A stretch of 32,000 nt of DNA, taken from Dickeya solani IPO 2222 (lineage in GTDB: Bacteria > Pseudomonadota > Gammaproteobacteria > Enterobacterales > Enterobacteriaceae). The notes under the pieces were generated by a model that worked only from the letters and a program-made list of their open reading frames with translations, made no database searches and was not told where the DNA came from. Of this stretch, positions 22,257 to 30,570 are shown piece after piece. Numbering within the stretch: the first letter of the stretch is position 1; each line of letters begins with the position of its first letter. Location of the stretch: contig NZ_CP015137.1 in the NCBI RefSeq assembly GCF_001644705.1, forward strand, positions 30,001-62,000, in the 5' to 3' direction. Made by a program: the position numbers and the translations under genes.

Positions 22257-22407
22257 CTCCCACTGACTCCCCTATTAAGACCTTTTCGGGTCGTTATCAT
22301 GACAAGGGCAACAGTTTGTCTGTTCATGGTTTTCTGCTAGCTTACTCTGGCTGCCTCCGTCACCATGCATGACGGCGCGGCTGACAATACCCTGTGGAGA
22401 AACAATC

Positions 22408-23400
22408 ATGAAACTGGCGATTTACAGTACCAAACAGTATGACCGCAAATACCTTGAGCAGGTGAATCAGCAGTTCGGGTATACGCTGGAATTTTTCGAT
22501 TTCATGCTCAGCCCGCGCACCGTCAAAATGGCCGCCGGCTGCGATGCCGTCTGCATCTTCGTCAACGACGAAGCCGGGCGCGAGGTGCTGACGGAACTGG
22601 CGAACACCGGCATCAACATACTGGCACTGCGCTGCGCCGGTTTTAACAACGTCGATCTGGACGCTGCCCGCGAGCTGGGGATCCAGGTGGTGCGCGTGCC
22701 GGCCTACTCGCCGGAAGCGGTGGCGGAACACGCGGTAGGCATGATGATGAGCCTGAACCGCCGCATTCACCGCGCCTATCAGCGCACCCGCGACGCCAAT
22801 TTCTCGCTGGAAGGGCTGATTGGCTTCAACATGTATCAACGCACCGCCGGGGTGATCGGTACCGGCAAAATCGGCATCGCCACCCTGCGCATCCTCAAAG
22901 GATTCGGCATGACGCTGCTGGCGCACGACCCTTACCCGAATCCGCAGGCGCTGGAACTGGGCGCGGAGTATGTCGATCTCGATACCCTGTACGCCCGGTC
23001 CGACGTGATTTCGCTGCACTGCCCGCTGACGCCGGAGAATCACCACCTGCTCGACCGCGACGCGTTTGCGCGCATGAAAAACGGGGTGATGATCATCAAC
23101 ACCAGCCGCGGAGGGTTGATTGACTCGCAGGCGGCGATCGACGCGCTGAAACAGCAGAAAATCGGTTCGCTGGGCATGGACGTCTATGAAAACGAGCGCG
23201 ATCTGTTCTTTACCGACAAATCCAACGACGTGATTCAGGACGATGTGTTCCGCCGGCTTTCCGCCTGTCATAACGTGCTGTTTACCGGCCATCAGGCCTT
23301 TTTGACCGAAGAAGCGCTGACCAGCATCTCCGAAACCACGCTGCACAATATTAAACAGCTTCGCGAAGGCACGCCGTGCCCTAATCGGGTCAATCCCTGA
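22408..23400 (+). CDS. ldhA: Fermentative D-lactate dehydrogenase (2-hydroxyacid dehydrogenase family)
   Basis: The ATG at 22408 has GGAGA upstream. MKLAIYSTKQYDRKYLEQVNQQFGYTLEFFDFML...GVIGTGKIGIATLRILKGFGM...SLHCPLTPENHHLL...INTSRGGLIDS...GMDVYENERDLFF... matches E. coli LdhA closely. Confidence 0.93.
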   Translation: MKLAIYSTKQYDRKYLEQVNQQFGYTLEFFDFMLSPRTVKMAAGCDAVCIFVNDEAGREVLTELANTGINILALRCAGFNNVDLDAARELGIQVVRVPAYSPEAVAEHAVGMMMSLNRRIHRAYQRTRDANFSLEGLIGFNMYQRTAGVIGTGKIGIATLRILKGFGMTLLAHDPYPNPQALELGAEYVDLDTLYARSDVISLHCPLTPENHHLLDRDAFARMKNGVMIINTSRGGLIDSQAAIDALKQQKIGSLGMDVYENERDLFFTDKSNDVIQDDVFRRLSACHNVLFTGHQAFLTEEALTSISETTLHNIKQLREGTPCPNRVNP

Positions 23401-23408
23401 TCGTTCAG

Positions 23409-23429
23409 CCGGTGGCGCCATGCCGCCGG
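23409..23429. terminator. Hairpin between the convergent ldhA and DUF333 genes
   Basis: CCGGTGGC / GCCAT / GCCGCCGG forms an 8-bp stem including one G-U pair. There is no clear U-tract on either strand. Confidence 0.35.
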
Positions 23430-23840: not shown

Positions 23841-24041
23841 ACATTTTTGCGGTGTGAGCAGCAACGGTTCATCACCGGTTTTCACCTCTCATGTTTTTAC
23901 GCACGGTAAGTAACAAATACAATTATTTTCAGGGAGATAAATTATATGATCTTATTTTTCAGACACTAAAGGCAGCAGAACGTTGGTCGATTAATGGTTA
24001 GGCTGATAAGCAATCAGCGCCATCGCCAACGGGAGTAGATA

Positions 24042-26006
24042 ATGGCACCTGCAAGAAAACGCTTTTTTGACATGCATGTCGCAACCAAGCTGTACCTGGG
24101 TTTTGCAACGATTTTATTTTTAGTGGTTCTTTCCTCAGCGCTGAGTATCCACCGTTTTTCGACCATCAAGGCGTACTACGGCAAGACCGACCTGATGCAC
24201 ACCGTCATCATGGATATTTTTCAGGTCAAAATCGCCAGAACAAAATATTTGGTCAGCAATGACAATGAGCCTTACGACACCATGCTCAGCTACAACAATG
24301 ATCTGGCTAAAAATCTTGAGCAAGGTAGCCAGCTCTATACCGAAAGCGAATTCAGGGATCCGCTGGCCCGCATGCAGAAACACCAGGCCGCACTACAACA
24401 ATCCATCAACGAAATGGCCCGCGCCAGGCAGGCGCTTACCGACGCCAGCGCCCGGTTTAACCGCATCCAGGTCGACGCCGCGATCTCCCGCTTTCGCAGC
24501 AGCCTGACGGCCACCGCTTTTGCCTCCGACAGCGACCGGGACAAAGCGACGGCGTTGACCCTGGCGCTGGCGTCTTATAAAGCGACAGCCGACGCCGTGG
24601 TGATTGAACGCACTCCCGCCGCGCTTAGCACCCTGCAAAGCCGTTTCAGCGATATCGAGAAAAGTTACCGCGACCTGTCCGCGCTGCTCCCGGCCGATCA
24701 GAAAACAGCGCTGGATGAATTCTGGGGAAACATCGTTAGTCTGAAAACGGGCGCGGAAAGCTACCTGAACGCTTACAAGGCGTTGTCGGGCGCAGAAGCA
24801 GCGGTGAAAACCGACGGCGATAATGTCAGCAATATCGCTAAAACAGTCATCAGCCGCCTGAGCGAAATCAACACCACGCTCACCAGCGACGCCATCACCG
24901 GCGCCACCGCATTCACCTTGCTGGCGTTGGTGTTCGGCCTGTTGATATCGCGTTATATCACCCGCCAGATTACGGCGCCGGTGTCCCACAATCTGGCGCT
25001 GGCGGAACGTATTGCCAACGGCGACCTGACCGCCAACATCGAAACGGATCGTCACGATGAACTGGGTCAGTTGACCTCCGCTATGGCGGGCATGAACGAA
25101 CGGTTACGTCAGATGATCGGCAATATCCGCGACAGCGTTGGCAGCGTGGCGGCATCCGCGGCGCAAATCGCCCACGGCAACCATGAACTGTCATCGCGCA
25201 CCGAGCAGCAATCCGCCGCCGTCGTTCAGACCGCCGCTAGCATGGAACAGCTCACCTCAACGGTGAAAAACAACGCCGACAACGCCCGCCATGCCAGCCA
25301 GATCGCGGCAGAAGCGTCCAGAGACGCGCACACGGGCGGCGGCGTGGTGCAAAACGTGGTCAATACCATGAATGACATCGCCGTCAGTTCGAAAAAAATC
25401 TCCGATATCACCGATGTGATCAACAGCATCGCCTTTCAAACCAACATCCTGGCGCTTAACGCCGCGGTGGAAGCCGCGCGCGCCGGCGAACAAGGGCGTG
25501 GCTTCGCGGTGGTCGCCGGAGAGGTGCGTAATCTGGCACAGCGCAGCGCTCTGGCCGCCCGTGAAATCGCCAGCCTGATCGCCGAGTCCGTTACTCGCAT
25601 CAATACCGGCTCCGTACTGGCAGCGGAAGCCGGCGACGCCATGCAGAAAATCCTGCTTTCGGTCTCTCGCGTCAACGACATCATCGGTGAAATCGCCTCG
25701 GCATCCGATGAACAGCGTCGCGGCATCGAGCAGATCGCCAGCGCAGTCGGCGAACTGGACTCCACCACCCAGCAAAACGCGTCGCTGGTGACGGCATCCG
25801 CCTCGTCCGCCAGTTCGCTGGAAGAACAATCGATACAACTGGAAACGCTGGTAAGTCATTTCCGGCTGGCGCAGGATAACCCGCCCCAATTGCCCCGGCA
25901 CACGGCGCTGCCCGCCGACCGCGCAGCTGCTCCCGTGCTGAGCCAGGCCCGGCTAACCCTCAATGACAAAAGCCGCCAGAGTCAGCAGAATTGGGAAAAT
26001 TTCTGA
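24042..26006 (+). CDS. Methyl-accepting chemotaxis protein with a large (~255 aa) all-helical periplasmic sensor domain, HAMP and signalling domain
   Basis: The ATG at 24042 has GGGAG 7 nt upstream. TM1 is [18 protein letters not shown] and TM2 is [19 protein letters not shown], followed by a HAMP domain ([18 protein letters not shown]). The signalling hairpin is [40 protein letters not shown]. The ligand cannot be called. Confidence 0.88.
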
Positions 26007-26115: not shown

Positions 26116-26613
26116 TTAGCGATCCTCGATCGAATGCGTCTCGACTTTCTCCGTCAGCGAGACTTCAACCTTAATGTCATCCGTCAAGGTCAGCATCGCC
26201 TTCTTATCCGGGCCCACCACCGCGGTGCGCTGCGGAATGATGAACTGGCGCACGCTCTCGCCCTCAATCATATCCTTGCCGTTTTCAACGCCATGCCGCG
26301 CCGACAGCAGATAATTCACCATGCCGTTATAGGTAATCTGATAATCACTACCGGACGACTCAACCCGGTAATTTAAGGTGATTTTTGGCAGCGCCGCTCT
26401 ATAGGTGCCGCGAATCTCATCCCAGCGCGCCGGGTTACCCGTCAGATAGACGGAATCCACCCAGTTGGTATTGTTCTGCAGCACATGGGCGGTGGTGTAG
26501 GAAAAGTAATAAGGCGAGACAAACGTACTGTTCAGGCTCGTTGTTTTCGTGCTGAACACAGAACATCCTGACAGCATCGCCGTGGCCGCCACGGCCAGGA
26601 ACAGTTTCTTCAT
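26116..26613 (-). CDS. Unknown 165-aa lipoprotein, divergent from the 692-aa hydrolase gene
   Basis: The ATG at 26613 gives a canonical lipoprotein signal MKKLFLAVAATAMLSGC. The mature part looks beta-rich (...YYFSYTTAHVLQNNTNWVDSVYLTG...ITLNYRVESSGSDYQITYNGMVNYLL...). I do not recognise the family. The longer track ORF up to 26850 is not credible. Confidence 0.7.
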   Translation of the reverse strand: MKKLFLAVAATAMLSGCSVFSTKTTSLNSTFVSPYYFSYTTAHVLQNNTNWVDSVYLTGNPARWDEIRGTYRAALPKITLNYRVESSGSDYQITYNGMVNYLLSARHGVENGKDMIEGESVRQFIIPQRTAVVGPDKKAMLTLTDDIKVEVSLTEKVETHSIEDR

Positions 26614-27019
26614 GGGTATTTTTCTCTTTTTGCCAACAGTTTCACCCCGAACAGGGGCCGGGCCGGTTTTCCTGTTATGACCTGCCAGACAAACACACAC
26701 GCAGGCAACGGGTTGCGCCCATAGAATAGCAGTGATTCTGCGGGTTGATGGAGTGAAAAAGGGGCAAGTGGAGGGATATTTATCCGCATCGACCACCACC
26801 GGCCCGCGTCTGAAATCCATCCGTCTGTTTGCTGAGCCGTCACCCAACACGCCTGAATAGTTTAATCAGCCACACACGATAATATAACGCCATCGTTCTT
26901 CTGCATGACGCTGAAATATACCCGACTTCAGTTCGTAATAATACTGAAGCGGCCTCCCATTCATCCTATTGGCGTTAATTTTCATGATTGACGTCAAATA
27001 ATATTGTTATTAAACGCCC

Positions 27020-29098
27020 ATGAAAAAAAATAACACCACCCGGAAACAACTCGTCGTCGTGATAAAAAAAACGCGCTCTTTTGCGAAGAAAACAGAAATA
27101 ACGACCCAATCCCGTCAAAATACCACAGCCGCCAACAGCACGGCAGCGAATTACCCCAACGCCCCGTCCACCGGGTTGGACAATATCCGCTTGTCCGCAC
27201 CGGAACCCGGCCAGTCTGGCGCGCCTGCACCTGCCGCCAGCCAGCCGACGCCGCCAGCCGCACCGCTGGCGACAACCGTTCCGCCGCTGCCAAAATTTAA
27301 TGCGCCGCGCGCTGAAACAGCCACGCCGCCGTCCGTGCCGCCGGTACAACCCTCAACATCCAGCACGCCGCAACCCAGCCTGCCGTCTCCAGCGCCGGCA
27401 CCGATTGCCGCCGCTTCCGTAGCAGAACCCCCGGCAGCCCAGGAACCGGCTACCCCACCGTTTGCGCCTGACTATGCAGCAGTTGGAAATCAGTTGAATA
27501 AGCTGATGTCCGGCATGGCGGCGCCGCTGTCGCGGCTGGCGGGCACCGTACCGGGATTACTCTCTTCCGCGTCTAAATCCATAGCGCAGGCAGCCAAAGA
27601 CAAGCCAAGCGTAGCCGCTGCCAAGCCGACTCCGGTTGAATCCAAAGCCACAGTGCCAACAGTTAACACCGCGGAAGCCAAGCCCATTGAGGTTAAGCCG
27701 ATCGAGGTTGATGTTAAAGTCAACGCGGTTACACCGGCGTCTTCGTCTGCCGCATCAACGCCTACTGCGGTGCCATTATCAGGCAGTTCAACAGCGTCGG
27801 CACCTAAACCTATCGCAACGGTAACCTGGAATCCTGCGACCACTCTCAGCTCACTGCAACGCAATGCCAAAAAGGAATCTATAGGTTATTGTGCAAGAGC
27901 CGTTGTAGATGCTATCCAGGCTGGTGGAACAAAAATAGAAAGAGTTCCTGCTGCGAAGGAGCTGGGCTCAAAACTTATTGCCGCCGGTTTTACCGCCGTA
28001 TTTTCCATGCCAAGGCCGTCCAGAGAATATGACCGCAGCAAACTCTTGCCTGGCGATATAGTTGTATTAGAAGGATTTAATAAAGACGAACGCAAAGGGA
28101 TAAAAAAAGACCATACTTTTGGCCATGCCGCCATGTACGACGGCAGCAAATGGATTTCTGACTTTACACAATCTGGGTTCTATCCAGGTCCGGATTACCG
28201 AAAGGCACTGCCTGGCTACACCATTTATCGAATGGTTGCCACGCAGGCTCAGATTAATGCCATCAACGCTTCTCAGAGGGGCGAATCGGCACCCCAAACG
28301 CCGGTAGCCGTGCCTTCTATGCCGGTAACGCGTCCGGCCCCTCAGACAGCGCAGCCATCAGCACCTGTAACGCGTTCTTCAACTCAGACGACACAACCGT
28401 CTGTACCGGTATCGCGCCCTGCGCATCAAACAGCGCGCCCTTCTGCACCTGTGTCACGCTCCACCGCATCTGGTTCTATTCCGTCGGGAAATAAGCCGAT
28501 ATCATCCGACCAAGACTTCCTTAATGAATTTAATATAGATATATCTTTTTTAAGGGTGTCTGAAGGCATGAGAAATGATGGGTATGTTCCTTTAAATAAG
28601 GATGGAACTCCAGTTGAAAATTCGGGAGTAACCATAGGAATGGGGATTGACTTAGGTCAGCGAGAAGCAAAAGACTTAATACGTGATGGTGTCCCCAGTA
28701 GCATTGTAGAAAAACTTAAACCCTACATGAAACTCAAGAAAGCGAATGCGTTACAAAAAATACGAGAAATGCCATTAAGATTAACATCCAATGAAGTCAG
28801 TATACTGTCAAACATATATATTCAAAAATCAATACAGTCTTTAGAAACTGAATTTGATAATGAAAGTAAAAGCGTAAAATTCTCGCAATTACCTGCCAAT
28901 ACACGGACCATGATCCTGGACCTGGCACATCAGTATGGAAATTTAAAATTGAAAACACCCAAAGCATGGGGATTCATAATAAATCAACAATGGGAAGAGC
29001 TTGTTAGAGAGTTAAATAATTTCCACGATAAATACCCAACCAGAAGAGGAAGAGAGGCCCAATTAATAGAGGATGACCTTAAGAACGGAAGAATATAA
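27020..29098 (+). CDS. 692-aa mosaic protein: Pro/Ala/Ser-rich N-terminal region, NlpC/P60-CHAP-like Cys-His amidase domain, and pesticin/T4-lysozyme-like muramidase domain
   Basis: This is the only possible start, because an in-frame TAA lies at 27011. There is no signal peptide. The central block SIGYC(291)ARAVVDAIQAGG...LPGDIVVLEG...FGH(369)AAMYDGSKWISDF has the papain-fold amidase signature. The C-terminal block FLRVSE(515)GMRNDGYVPLNKDGTPVENSGVT(538)IGMGID(544)LGQ has the lysozyme E/T/D arrangement. Family names come from motif recognition only. Confidence 0.8.
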   Translation: MKKNNTTRKQLVVVIKKTRSFAKKTEITTQSRQNTTAANSTAANYPNAPSTGLDNIRLSAPEPGQSGAPAPAASQPTPPAAPLATTVPPLPKFNAPRAETATPPSVPPVQPSTSSTPQPSLPSPAPAPIAAASVAEPPAAQEPATPPFAPDYAAVGNQLNKLMSGMAAPLSRLAGTVPGLLSSASKSIAQAAKDKPSVAAAKPTPVESKATVPTVNTAEAKPIEVKPIEVDVKVNAVTPASSSAASTPTAVPLSGSSTASAPKPIATVTWNPATTLSSLQRNAKKESIGYCARAVVDAIQAGGTKIERVPAAKELGSKLIAAGFTAVFSMPRPSREYDRSKLLPGDIVVLEGFNKDERKGIKKDHTFGHAAMYDGSKWISDFTQSGFYPGPDYRKALPGYTIYRMVATQAQINAINASQRGESAPQTPVAVPSMPVTRPAPQTAQPSAPVTRSSTQTTQPSVPVSRPAHQTARPSAPVSRSTASGSIPSGNKPISSDQDFLNEFNIDISFLRVSEGMRNDGYVPLNKDGTPVENSGVTIGMGIDLGQREAKDLIRDGVPSSIVEKLKPYMKLKKANALQKIREMPLRLTSNEVSILSNIYIQKSIQSLETEFDNESKSVKFSQLPANTRTMILDLAHQYGNLKLKTPKAWGFIINQQWEELVRELNNFHDKYPTRRGREAQLIEDDLKNGRI
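28322..28489 (+). repeat. Four degenerate 42-bp (14-aa) tandem units forming the inter-domain linker of the 692-aa protein
   Basis: PVTRPAPQTAQPSA (28322), PVTRSSTQTTQPSV (28364), PVSRPAHQTARPSA (28406) and PVSRSTASGSIPSG (28448). Confidence 0.8.
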
Positions 29099-30334: not shown

Positions 30335-30359
30335 AAAAAAAAGCCGACAAAACGTCGGC
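30335..30359 (-). terminator. Rho-independent terminator on the minus strand, ~210 nt downstream of the zntB stop
   Basis: The minus strand reads GCCGAC GTTTT GTCGGC TTTTTTTT: a 6-bp stem, a 5-nt loop and an 8-T tract. Confidence 0.75.
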
Positions 30360-30570
30360 ATGGTGTGAATTAATTGTGCTATGCAGTAATTCAAAAAAGG
30401 AAGTAAGACAATATGGAGCGCAACGCCCATCGCTTGACGTTGCATTCACCTGCGAGAGGGATAGTGCCGCAGGCGTAGACCAAAAATGTTGATATTGCTC
30501 AATATTGACCACGGTTTTTATCATCGTCGACGGTTGTGTGATACCCCACGCAATAATTTTGCCATGCCAC

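Follow-up and report, generated by a model that had tools for sequence, protein, structure and literature searches.

A probable polymorphic peptidoglycan toxin of Dickeya with exchangeable cell wall hydrolases behind a genus-restricted N-terminal module

How would a protein that carries two peptidoglycan-degrading enzymes, and no signal peptide, reach a cell wall, and to what end? This question is raised by a gene on the forward strand of the Dickeya solani IPO 2222 chromosome, within the 32,000 nucleotides of contig NZ_CP015137.1 (positions 30,001 to 62,000) that were analyzed as a whole and are referred to here as the window; coordinates count from its first letter. A first-pass annotation of the same DNA, made from its letters alone, had described the 692-amino acid (aa) product as an antibacterial lytic toxin. 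In the reading reached here, the gene is probably a Dickeya-specific polymorphic antibacterial peptidoglycan toxin. Its first 175 residues, predicted to be disordered, would act as a delivery module bearing an export or loading signal, and a flexible spacer behind this module would carry exchangeable peptidoglycan-degrading cargo. In the allele of the window, a Tae3-like Cys-His peptidase would cut peptide cross-links, to judge from the specificity of its homologs, and a muramidase related to pesticin and T4 lysozyme would cut the glycan strands. Acting together, these enzymes would dismantle the target cell wall from the periplasmic side.

The reading frame of the gene is uninterrupted in seven Dickeya species, with every indel of the alignment in frame, and residues 1-175 are nearly invariant among the 15 aligned members of the family. 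Because of these two properties, the 692-aa form is judged by sequence comparison to be the correct gene model. An NCBI entry is identical to it over all 692 aa ('pesticin C-terminus-like muramidase [Dickeya solani]', 41 contigs). Public annotation of the gene in D. solani is inconsistent, giving 692 aa, 527-530 aa from an internal Met start, or a separate 152-aa 'hypothetical protein'. Many D. dadantii entries are fragments of 182-468 aa, which may represent frameshifts or pseudogenes in some strains. The earlier description of a 692-aa open reading frame (ORF) without a signal peptide agrees with both the ORF call and hydropathy, Kyte-Doolittle values over 19-residue windows reaching no more than 0.15 in the first 60 residues. 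Over the whole protein the maximum of the same measure is 0.92, and the toxin therefore has no membrane segment.

The C-terminal enzyme matches the Pfam Pesticin model (PF16754) over its entire length (profile positions 1-156 of 156; E=2e-44; 151.7 bits against a cut-off of 25.8). Pesticin in the PDB aligns to residues 506-690 (E=2.6e-33), without a gap in the catalytic region. Residues E178, T201, and D207 of pesticin fall on E515, T538, and D544 of the Dickeya protein at a constant offset of 337, and this ungapped alignment vindicates the catalytic residues and their spacings of 23 and 6, which the first-pass annotation had proposed. The titles of PDB entries list E178A, T201A, and D207A pesticin as inactive mutants. 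AlphaFold2 models the domain confidently (predicted local distance difference test, pLDDT, 80-93), and Foldseek leads from the model to pesticin (4aqn; E=9e-16), with 35% identity to the Yersinia pestis protein. The T4-lysozyme/pesticin muramidase that had been placed at about residues 500-692 is borne out by all three approaches.

The closest annotated relatives of this domain in tblastn and BLASTP searches are pesticin-type bacteriocins of about 330 aa from Klebsiella and Serratia plasmids, with about 45% identity. Two of these plasmid genes, annotated only generically, belong to Klebsiella pneumoniae (on a plasmid of about 54 kb; locus L012, 4563-6119) and Serratia ureilytica (locus L013, 4566-6031). 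Their products start with a TonB-box-like ETMTVTA, and each gene is followed by a convergent gene for a 141-aa signal-peptide protein, presumably a pim-type immunity protein. In a phage protein collection, matches were restricted to the Pesticin domain (35-39% identity; Vibrio, Pseudoalteromonas, and other phages, some of the proteins annotated as lysozymes), and this search gave no sign that the toxin gene belongs to a prophage.

The enzyme that precedes the muramidase is matched by no Pfam model. Residues 281-404 nevertheless find 4hz9_A in a PDB sequence search (E=2.7e-19), which is Tae3, an amidase effector of Ralstonia pickettii's type VI secretion system (T6SS) with catalytic residues C23 and H81 (bioRxiv 10.1101/2024.06.29.601107; PMC10318531). 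The aligned counterparts of this dyad are C291, the sole cysteine of the 692-aa protein, and H369. Foldseek also leads to Tae3 (E=7.7e-6; template modeling score, TM, 0.77) from an AlphaFold2 model of moderate confidence in this domain. The Cys-His papain-fold amidase predicted earlier at about residues 285-400 therefore holds, and the guess that it might be a type VI amidase can be narrowed to Tae3. Profile and fold comparisons agree that both domains resemble cell wall hydrolases, the muramidase through Pfam and the amidase through the PDB and Foldseek. All five catalytic residues (C291, H369, E515, T538, and D544) are invariant across 12 family members. Tae3 enzymes cleave the peptide cross-links of peptidoglycan.

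The presumed delivery module is built from an invariant basic, beta-prone head (residues 1-27; consensus MKKNNTTRKQLxVVIKKTRSFxKKTEI), a Pro-rich stretch that evolves freely, and a conserved helix motif (FAPDYAAVGxQLxKLMSGMAAPLSRLAG). The breakpoint at which cargo changes falls directly after LSRLAG175. No Pfam match to the module exists at E<=10, and phmmer with residues 1-200 recovered the Dickeya family alone from 1.84 billion representative proteins, a single-sequence search that leaves very remote homology possible. Homology to the PIX, MIX, FIX, or RIX delivery domains was found in neither search. AlphaFold2 assigns pLDDT values below 50 to residues 1-270 and 409-498, and the sole helix predicted within the first 270 residues, with low confidence (152-174), lies in the amphipathic stretch 151-195. 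Disorder of the module is predicted on this basis, as a soft call because the model was built from a shallow alignment of 12 family sequences. Synonymous change exceeds nonsynonymous change at residues 136-180, and purifying selection therefore operates there at the protein level. Codons 1-15 are conserved at synonymous sites too (0.05 vs about 0.25 elsewhere), which continues the conservation of the leader upstream.

The spacer between the module and the first enzyme is likewise predicted to be disordered. Pro, Ala, Ser, and Thr make up 61% of residues 40-280 (19% Pro, 20% Ala), and KPIEVKPIEV, starting at residue 221, is the product of a 15-nt tandem duplication (27680-27709). Composition, sequence, and AlphaFold2 all concur here with the first-pass annotation, which had pointed out the P/A/S/T-rich residues 40-280, the KPIEV duplication, the amphipathic stretch, and a disordered N-terminus. 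The linker that separates the two enzymes differs in length among alleles.

What follows the conserved module varies from allele to allele. Homologs of the toxin are confined to Dickeya; one entry from 'Erwinia sp. AG740' shares its lipoprotein sequence with D. zeae. A Tae3-like domain is combined with a type-1 Pesticin domain in the window allele, D. zeae, D. parazeae, and D. chrysanthemi, with a divergent type-2 Pesticin domain in D. fangzhongdai and D. poaceiphila, and with a glucosaminidase (PF01832) in D. dadantii and D. fangzhongdai. Other alleles, in D. solani, D. dadantii, D. zeae, and D. undicola, pair a different module with a glucosaminidase/GH73-like domain. More than one cargo type consequently occurs within each of four species, D. 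solani, D. dadantii, D. zeae, and D. fangzhongdai. Codon usage follows the same division. GC content at third codon positions (GC3) is 0.63 in the N-terminal module, close to that of host genes, 0.40 in the Tae3-like domain, and 0.32 in the Pesticin domain, with a sharp drop in GC at about 28490; the range for cargo is 0.32-0.40, against 0.68-0.76 in neighbouring genes. By its foreign codon usage, the cargo is evidently acquired, a resident delivery region having apparently recombined with imported warheads. A conserved head, exchangeable cargo at one slot, and mosaic codon usage together define a polymorphic-toxin architecture, and the family shows what is expected of such toxins: close relatives share the conserved N-terminal region but differ in their C-terminal toxin domains, which are unrelated alternatives to one another.

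The module that stands in place of Tae3 in some alleles (residues ~230-430; for example, locus L002, 10690-11290) contains long invariant stretches in nine aligned members. It has no sequence match in Pfam or the PDB. A motif recognized by eye, ATESAGG...GYLGRYQAG, suggests a lytic-transglycosylase-like domain; no fold search was made because the AlphaFold2 model was too poor (mean pLDDT 38.9).

Genes of an immunity type accompany one of these cargo classes. In D. fangzhongdai, a type-2 Pesticin allele is followed by two genes of the DUF1311/LprI lysozyme-inhibitor family, both with signal peptides, which have been listed without interpretation (PMC6329079). DUF1311/LprI is a recognized T6SS immunity family against lysozyme-like effectors (PMC12135965). 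D. fangzhongdai loci with other cargo do not have the pair. In D. solani strain 2 and D. undicola, where the cargo is now different, DUF1311 remnants persist downstream (L002, 12373-12854; L001, 12016-12117). One remnant retains 85% identity over 121 aa, lacks a signal peptide, and forms a fusion with the final 44 aa from the second gene, and the other consists of the last 34 aa only. Read from these sequences, DUF1311 genes appear to track one cargo type and to erode once it has been replaced, such that the remnants would record past replacement. Cargo swapping, the DUF1311 genes with their decayed remnants, and foreign codon usage all support the antibacterial lytic toxin of the first-pass annotation.

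The chromosomal setting bears on whether the gene might instead serve the producer itself. A survey of related genomes found the toxin at the same slot in all carriers examined, between the 165-aa lipoprotein gene and ttcA (the window and nine other loci), and absent from D. lacustris. In the latter species, the lipoprotein gene and about 190 nt beside it run directly into the block upstream of ttcA, and the toxin gene is missing together with its leader of about 215 bp. Because gene and leader are absent together and the junction is clean, they behave as a cassette. A fixed chromosomal position between core genes, vertical inheritance, a strongly conserved upstream regulatory region, and the lack of an immunity gene in most alleles would suit a housekeeping or machine-associated wall-remodeling enzyme, or an autolysin, whose cargo variation would amount to the exchange of equivalent hydrolases. 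Such a role is nevertheless very improbable. The cargo differs radically inside single species, its codon usage is foreign, and immunity-family genes come and go with it; the gene is dispensable, being cleanly missing from D. lacustris. Moreover, with no signal peptide, it is not obvious how the protein would get to the wall of its producer, and its domains come from effector and bacteriocin families rather than from housekeeping hydrolases.

For an antibacterial toxin of this kind, the most likely route is loading onto the Dickeya T6SS as an orphan cargo effector, a proposal that is put forward tentatively and may well prove wrong. It is favored because Tae3 is a T6SS family, because Tae3-like domains combined with Pesticin or glucosaminidase domains and DUF1311 genes make up the toolkit of the WHIX subclass II effectors, and because PIX effectors offer a precedent for orphan genes. 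The published D. zeae-complex and D. fangzhongdai strains that have been analyzed all carry a T6SS. The literature yielded no Dickeya secretome, T6SS effector, or FliA regulon data specific to the toxin gene. Delivery by the Hrp type III secretion system (T3SS) or by a type IV secretion system (T4SS) is disfavored, because D. zeae PL65 lacks both and yet carries an intact member of the family (FGI21_01905). Inspection of the conserved upstream region by eye, rather than by a formal scan, showed no hrp box.

Several observations weigh against a T6SS-delivered antibacterial toxin. The PIX and WHIX delivery domains of the T6SS are described as folded, whereas the Dickeya module is predicted to be disordered, and none of the family members has a vgrG, hcp, PAAR, or adaptor gene nearby. 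Immunity is a further difficulty. The window allele has no recognizable immunity gene, tblastn with DUF1311 and Pim-like proteins being negative over the 32 kb. Intact DUF1311 genes are present at one of the ten toxin-bearing loci examined; two other type-2 alleles (L008 and L011) and all type-1 and glucosaminidase alleles are without a DUF1311-type gene, and no Tai3-like (DUF3828) gene was annotated or noticed beside any Tae3-bearing allele at these loci. Immunity genes that are absent this often are unusual for a T6SS effector, or for a bacteriocin, able to reach sister cells.

In these respects, the first-pass annotation had read the window correctly: it reported the absence of an immunity gene, of any ORF between the toxin and ttcA, and of secretion, phage, or lysis genes. 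When the main window ORFs were scanned with Pfam, genes for secretion systems, phage functions, or lysis were not found, and the forward strand holds no ORF between the toxin stop codon and ttcA. With the 141-aa pim-like proteins of Klebsiella and Serratia, tblastn likewise gave no match (E>1), whether against the window or against the Dickeya loci. The neighboring lipoprotein was considered as the missing immunity gene and rejected because it is independent of the cargo, being identical in D. solani strains whose cargo differs, because it has no informative match (none in Pfam or the PDB, Tai3 included), and because it is present in the toxin-less D. lacustris. Its conservation of 79-96% likewise speaks against that role.

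The scarcity of immunity genes would be less surprising for a soluble bacteriocin of the colicin or pyocin type, whose producers would need no immunity gene if they lacked the receptor. Such a protein would be released by lysis or leakage, its disordered N-terminus would thread through an outer-membrane receptor, the TonB-box-like strand QLVVVI (residues 10-15) would drive import, and the enzymes would lyse the target from the periplasm. The translocation domains of colicins and pyocins are typically long disordered N-termini with short motifs, and the long N-terminus of the Dickeya protein, with its short invariant motifs, resembles them. Both of these families also join a conserved head to swappable killing domains, and a genus-restricted head would fit receptor specificity. 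In addition, the nearest annotated Pesticin relatives are plasmid bacteriocins with pim-like partners and a TonB-box-like start. This route is nonetheless unlikely. No folded receptor-binding domain was found, and the N-terminal half of pesticin (residues 1-167) has no similarity to the toxin. There is no lysis gene, and no LexA box (SOS box) was seen in the conserved upstream region, as judged by eye rather than by a formal scan. QLVVVI lacks the acidic/Thr start of classical TonB boxes, and the first 15 codons are conserved at synonymous sites, so its invariance is not purely a matter of the protein. T6SS effectors are, to our knowledge, the only proteins in which Tae3 domains have been described. 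The colicin-like, TonB-box-dependent mechanism of the first-pass annotation is therefore not established, on account of these negative findings and because the invariance of QLVVVI lies partly at the nucleotide level.

A third route out of the cell is suggested by the region upstream of the gene. The leader contains a candidate promoter of the sigma-28 (FliA) type, which is a weak lead. It scores 12/16 against the consensus TAAAGTTT-N11-GCCGATAA, and it is kept only as a lead because this calibration is intermediate between real E. coli sigma-28 promoters (14-16) and control regions (9-11). Interspecies differences at the site are confined to the spacer and spare the two elements, and its core, AGTTT-N13-CGATAA, occurs once in the window. 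Sites scoring 12/16 are expected by chance 1.67 times per shuffled window. The four real E. coli sigma-28 promoters tested all begin with TAAA, which the toxin site lacks. No good sigma-70 promoter was found on the toxin strand.

If this promoter were real, the toxin could be a substrate of flagellar type III export that is transcribed along with the neighboring chemoreceptor genes and uses its disordered N-terminus as an export signal, as FlgJ does. The enzyme would then be freed outside the cell or into the periplasm and would attack exposed peptidoglycan, for example, that of Gram-positive competitors. The conserved site scores above all E. coli control regions, and the lack of a sigma-70 promoter on the toxin strand is consistent with its use. 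Genes for methyl-accepting chemotaxis proteins (MCPs) flank the toxin, one of them with an upstream site of similar quality, and the protein has no signal peptide and about 270 N-terminal residues predicted to be disordered. Some alleles carry the PF01832 glucosaminidase, a domain that forms the C-terminus of the flagellar hydrolase FlgJ, and flagellar export would explain why most alleles have no immunity gene. The proposal remains decidedly improbable given the low score of the site, its missing TAAA, and the frequency of such sites by chance. We know of no precedent for flagellar export of a polymorphic antibacterial toxin, the DUF1311 genes beside one allele, with their periplasmic products, speak for a toxin that enters the periplasm, and no supporting expression data were found in the literature.

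A second sigma-28-like site, TAAAGGCA-N11-GTCGATTA (11/16), lies on the forward strand at 23960-24000, some 55 nt ahead of the MCP gene at 24042. It is consistent with flagellar class-3 control of this putatively regulated chemoreceptor gene.

The leader itself is highly conserved. The region between the lipoprotein and toxin genes (26614-27019) has a mean identity of 88% over six Dickeya loci, and it holds conserved inverted repeats, CTTCAG..CTGAAG and GGCGTTAAT..ATTAAACGCC, the latter adjoining the ATG. A structured RNA was considered and rejected: the leader can fold, but of 38 predicted pairs a single one has changed on both sides, and Rfam has no match to it. Leader conservation and the inverted repeats suggest post-transcriptional control, but the predicted pairing shows no covariation. 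Across species, nucleotide-level conservation takes in the leader and the first ~15 codons within 26885-27065 (+), where CATGACG in the leader could pair over a distance with CGTCGTG, which lies in codons 12-14.

The hairpin that follows the stop codon was called a terminator in the first-pass annotation. The hairpin itself is real and is conserved in D. zeae, where T:A replaces a C:G pair in compensation, but it has no clear U-tract and is not listed by a terminator scan; it probably marks the 3' end of the toxin transcript. The features described are collected in Table 1.

Table 1. Position of the toxin gene, its domains and catalytic residues, and adjoining elements in the window.
Feature	Position	Strand	Remarks
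165-aa lipoprotein gene (lipobox LSGC)	26116-26613	-	Dickeya-restricted, 79-96% conserved
Promoter and 5' leader of toxin cassette (left boundary approximate)	26805..27019	+	Absent together with the gene in D. lacustris
Candidate sigma-28 (FliA) type promoter, AATAGTTT-N11-CACGATAA	26856..26882	+	Weak lead
Toxin gene, 692 aa	27020..29098 (stop codon included)	+	ATG start, intact frame
Conserved N-terminal module, residues 1-175	27020..27544	+	Near-invariant whatever the cargo; presumed delivery module
Variable Pro/Ala/Ser/Thr spacer, residues 176-280	27545..27859	+	Predicted disordered
Tae3-like papain-fold peptidoglycan amidase/endopeptidase domain, residues 281-404	27860..28231	+	PDB and Foldseek match
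Catalytic C291	27890-27892	+	Aligned with Tae3 dyad
Catalytic H369	28124-28126	+	Aligned with Tae3 dyad
Pro/Ser/Thr/Gln-rich linker, predicted disordered, residues 405-489	28232..28486	+	Loosely repeated PxxPVxRxxxQT units
Pesticin/T4-lysozyme-like muramidase domain, residues 490-692	28487..29095	+	PF16754 match 505-659
E515	28562-28564	+	Pesticin triad position
T538	28631-28633	+	Pesticin triad position
D544	28649-28651	+	Pesticin triad position
Hairpin after stop codon	29112..29137	+	Free energy (dG) -23.8 kcal/mol, z -4.8

The remaining genes of the window are all described as housekeeping. They include a sulfate permease, a two-component system, asr, a trypsin-like protease, a lactate permease with lutABC, the helicase gene hrpA, azoR, ydbH, the two MCP genes, ttcA, and zntB. 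Between ttcA and zntB lies the gene for the small RNA FnrS (fumarate/nitrate reductase regulator) on the reverse strand at 30339-30453, which matches its full-length Rfam model with 123.9 bits. The interval 22360-23421 is covered on both strands by overlapping ORFs of nearly full length. The forward ORF (22369-23400) is a 2-hydroxyacid dehydrogenase in related loci, and the reverse ORF, which has no Pfam match, is probably spurious.

Polymorphic toxins are usually recognized by their delivery domains, and MIX, FIX, RIX, PIX, and WHIX have each revealed new effectors together with a new loading mechanism. The Dickeya family offers a compact example that is genus-wide and comes from an important crop pathogen, with at least four cargo combinations exchanged by recombination at one slot. 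A head that served to load the protein onto the T6SS would be an unusual signal of that kind, consisting of short linear motifs. A new route for a two-enzyme cell wall toxin would emerge if the head drove TonB-dependent import, and likewise if it drove flagellar export. The improbable flagellar case would mean that a flagellar export machine releases swappable toxins, and it would explain the missing signal peptide, the chemoreceptor neighbors, and the absence of immunity genes from most alleles at once. From a practical standpoint, the locus marks, at the level of strains, the antagonistic potential of Dickeya in mixed soft-rot infections, and the boundary after LSRLAG175, where cargo is exchanged, hints at a natural chassis on which lysins might be engineered.

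Comparison with known systems clarifies which of these features are new. The combination of amidase and muramidase, which the first-pass annotation had not known as described, is already established in T6SS effectors, and its claim of novelty was overstated: the WHIX 'double-blade' effectors (2025, PMC12135965), which join Tae3-like to Pesticin or glucosaminidase domains, precede it, and Tae17 and Tse4 are further known T6SS peptidoglycan hydrolases with two activities. WHIX subclass II effectors, such as Awe1 of Aeromonas jandaei, carry two peptidoglycan-targeting domains per polypeptide and occur mainly in Enterobacterales, Pseudomonadales, and Aeromonadales (PMC12135965). They share with the Dickeya family the same cargo families (Tae3-like, Pesticin lysozyme-like, and N-acetylglucosaminidase), polymorphism, and the lack of a signal peptide. 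Their periplasmic immunity proteins are of the DUF1311/LprI and Tai3 types, the former of which is found at the D. fangzhongdai allele but not at the window allele. WHIX effectors have flanking immunity genes, whereas the window allele has none. The WHIX domain itself is folded and bipartite, about 450-550 aa long, with a WHxxxH motif; it sits between the two toxic domains and caps the VgrG tail. In the Dickeya toxin, by contrast, both enzymes stand in tandem, C-terminal to a 175-aa module that is predicted to be disordered and is without homologs. Membership in the WHIX class was rejected: no 'WH' dipeptide occurs anywhere in the protein, its only folded regions are the two enzyme domains, and no room is left for a domain of ~450 aa.

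The PIX effectors of Pantoea, and also the MIX, FIX, and RIX effectors, have a conserved N-terminal region, diverse C-terminal toxins, genes away from the T6SS cluster, and a restricted taxonomic range, as does the toxin family. PIX, however, is a folded domain of 140 aa, and its effectors often lie near mobile elements, in contrast to the predicted disorder of the Dickeya module and its single core-genome slot. Tae17 and Tse4 of Acinetobacter baumannii likewise unite glycan- and peptide-cleaving domains in one effector, and the amidase of Tae17 also resembles Tae3. Unlike the Pesticin domain of the toxin, the glycan-cleaving domains of both are lytic transglycosylases. Tae17 differs further in that its folded Ig-like and LysM N-terminal domains bind the cognate VgrG with which it is encoded.

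With respect to single enzymes, the Tae3-Tai3 pair of R. pickettii (4hz9) shares the papain-fold domain, the Cys-His dyad, and the conserved DGS-WISDF motif around it. Tae3 was crystallized with its immunity protein Tai3 as a single-domain chain of ~119 residues, whereas its Dickeya counterpart, which has ~20 extra residues in the alignment, belongs to a 692-aa multidomain protein. The muramidase domain is homologous over its full length to those of Y. pestis pesticin and the Klebsiella and Serratia plasmid pesticins, with identical catalytic Glu, Thr, and Asp residues, and these proteins have no signal peptide either. The alignments cover the C-terminal domain only, and the toxin has no similarity to the N-terminal translocation and receptor-binding half of pesticins. 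It also differs from them in having a second, Tae3-like enzyme, in being chromosomal and about twice as long, and in lacking a Pim-like gene. What is new in the Dickeya family is the frequent absence of immunity genes, the genus-restricted N-terminal module that is predicted to be disordered, the tandem arrangement of enzymes behind it, and the exchange of cargo among alleles of a single core-genome locus.

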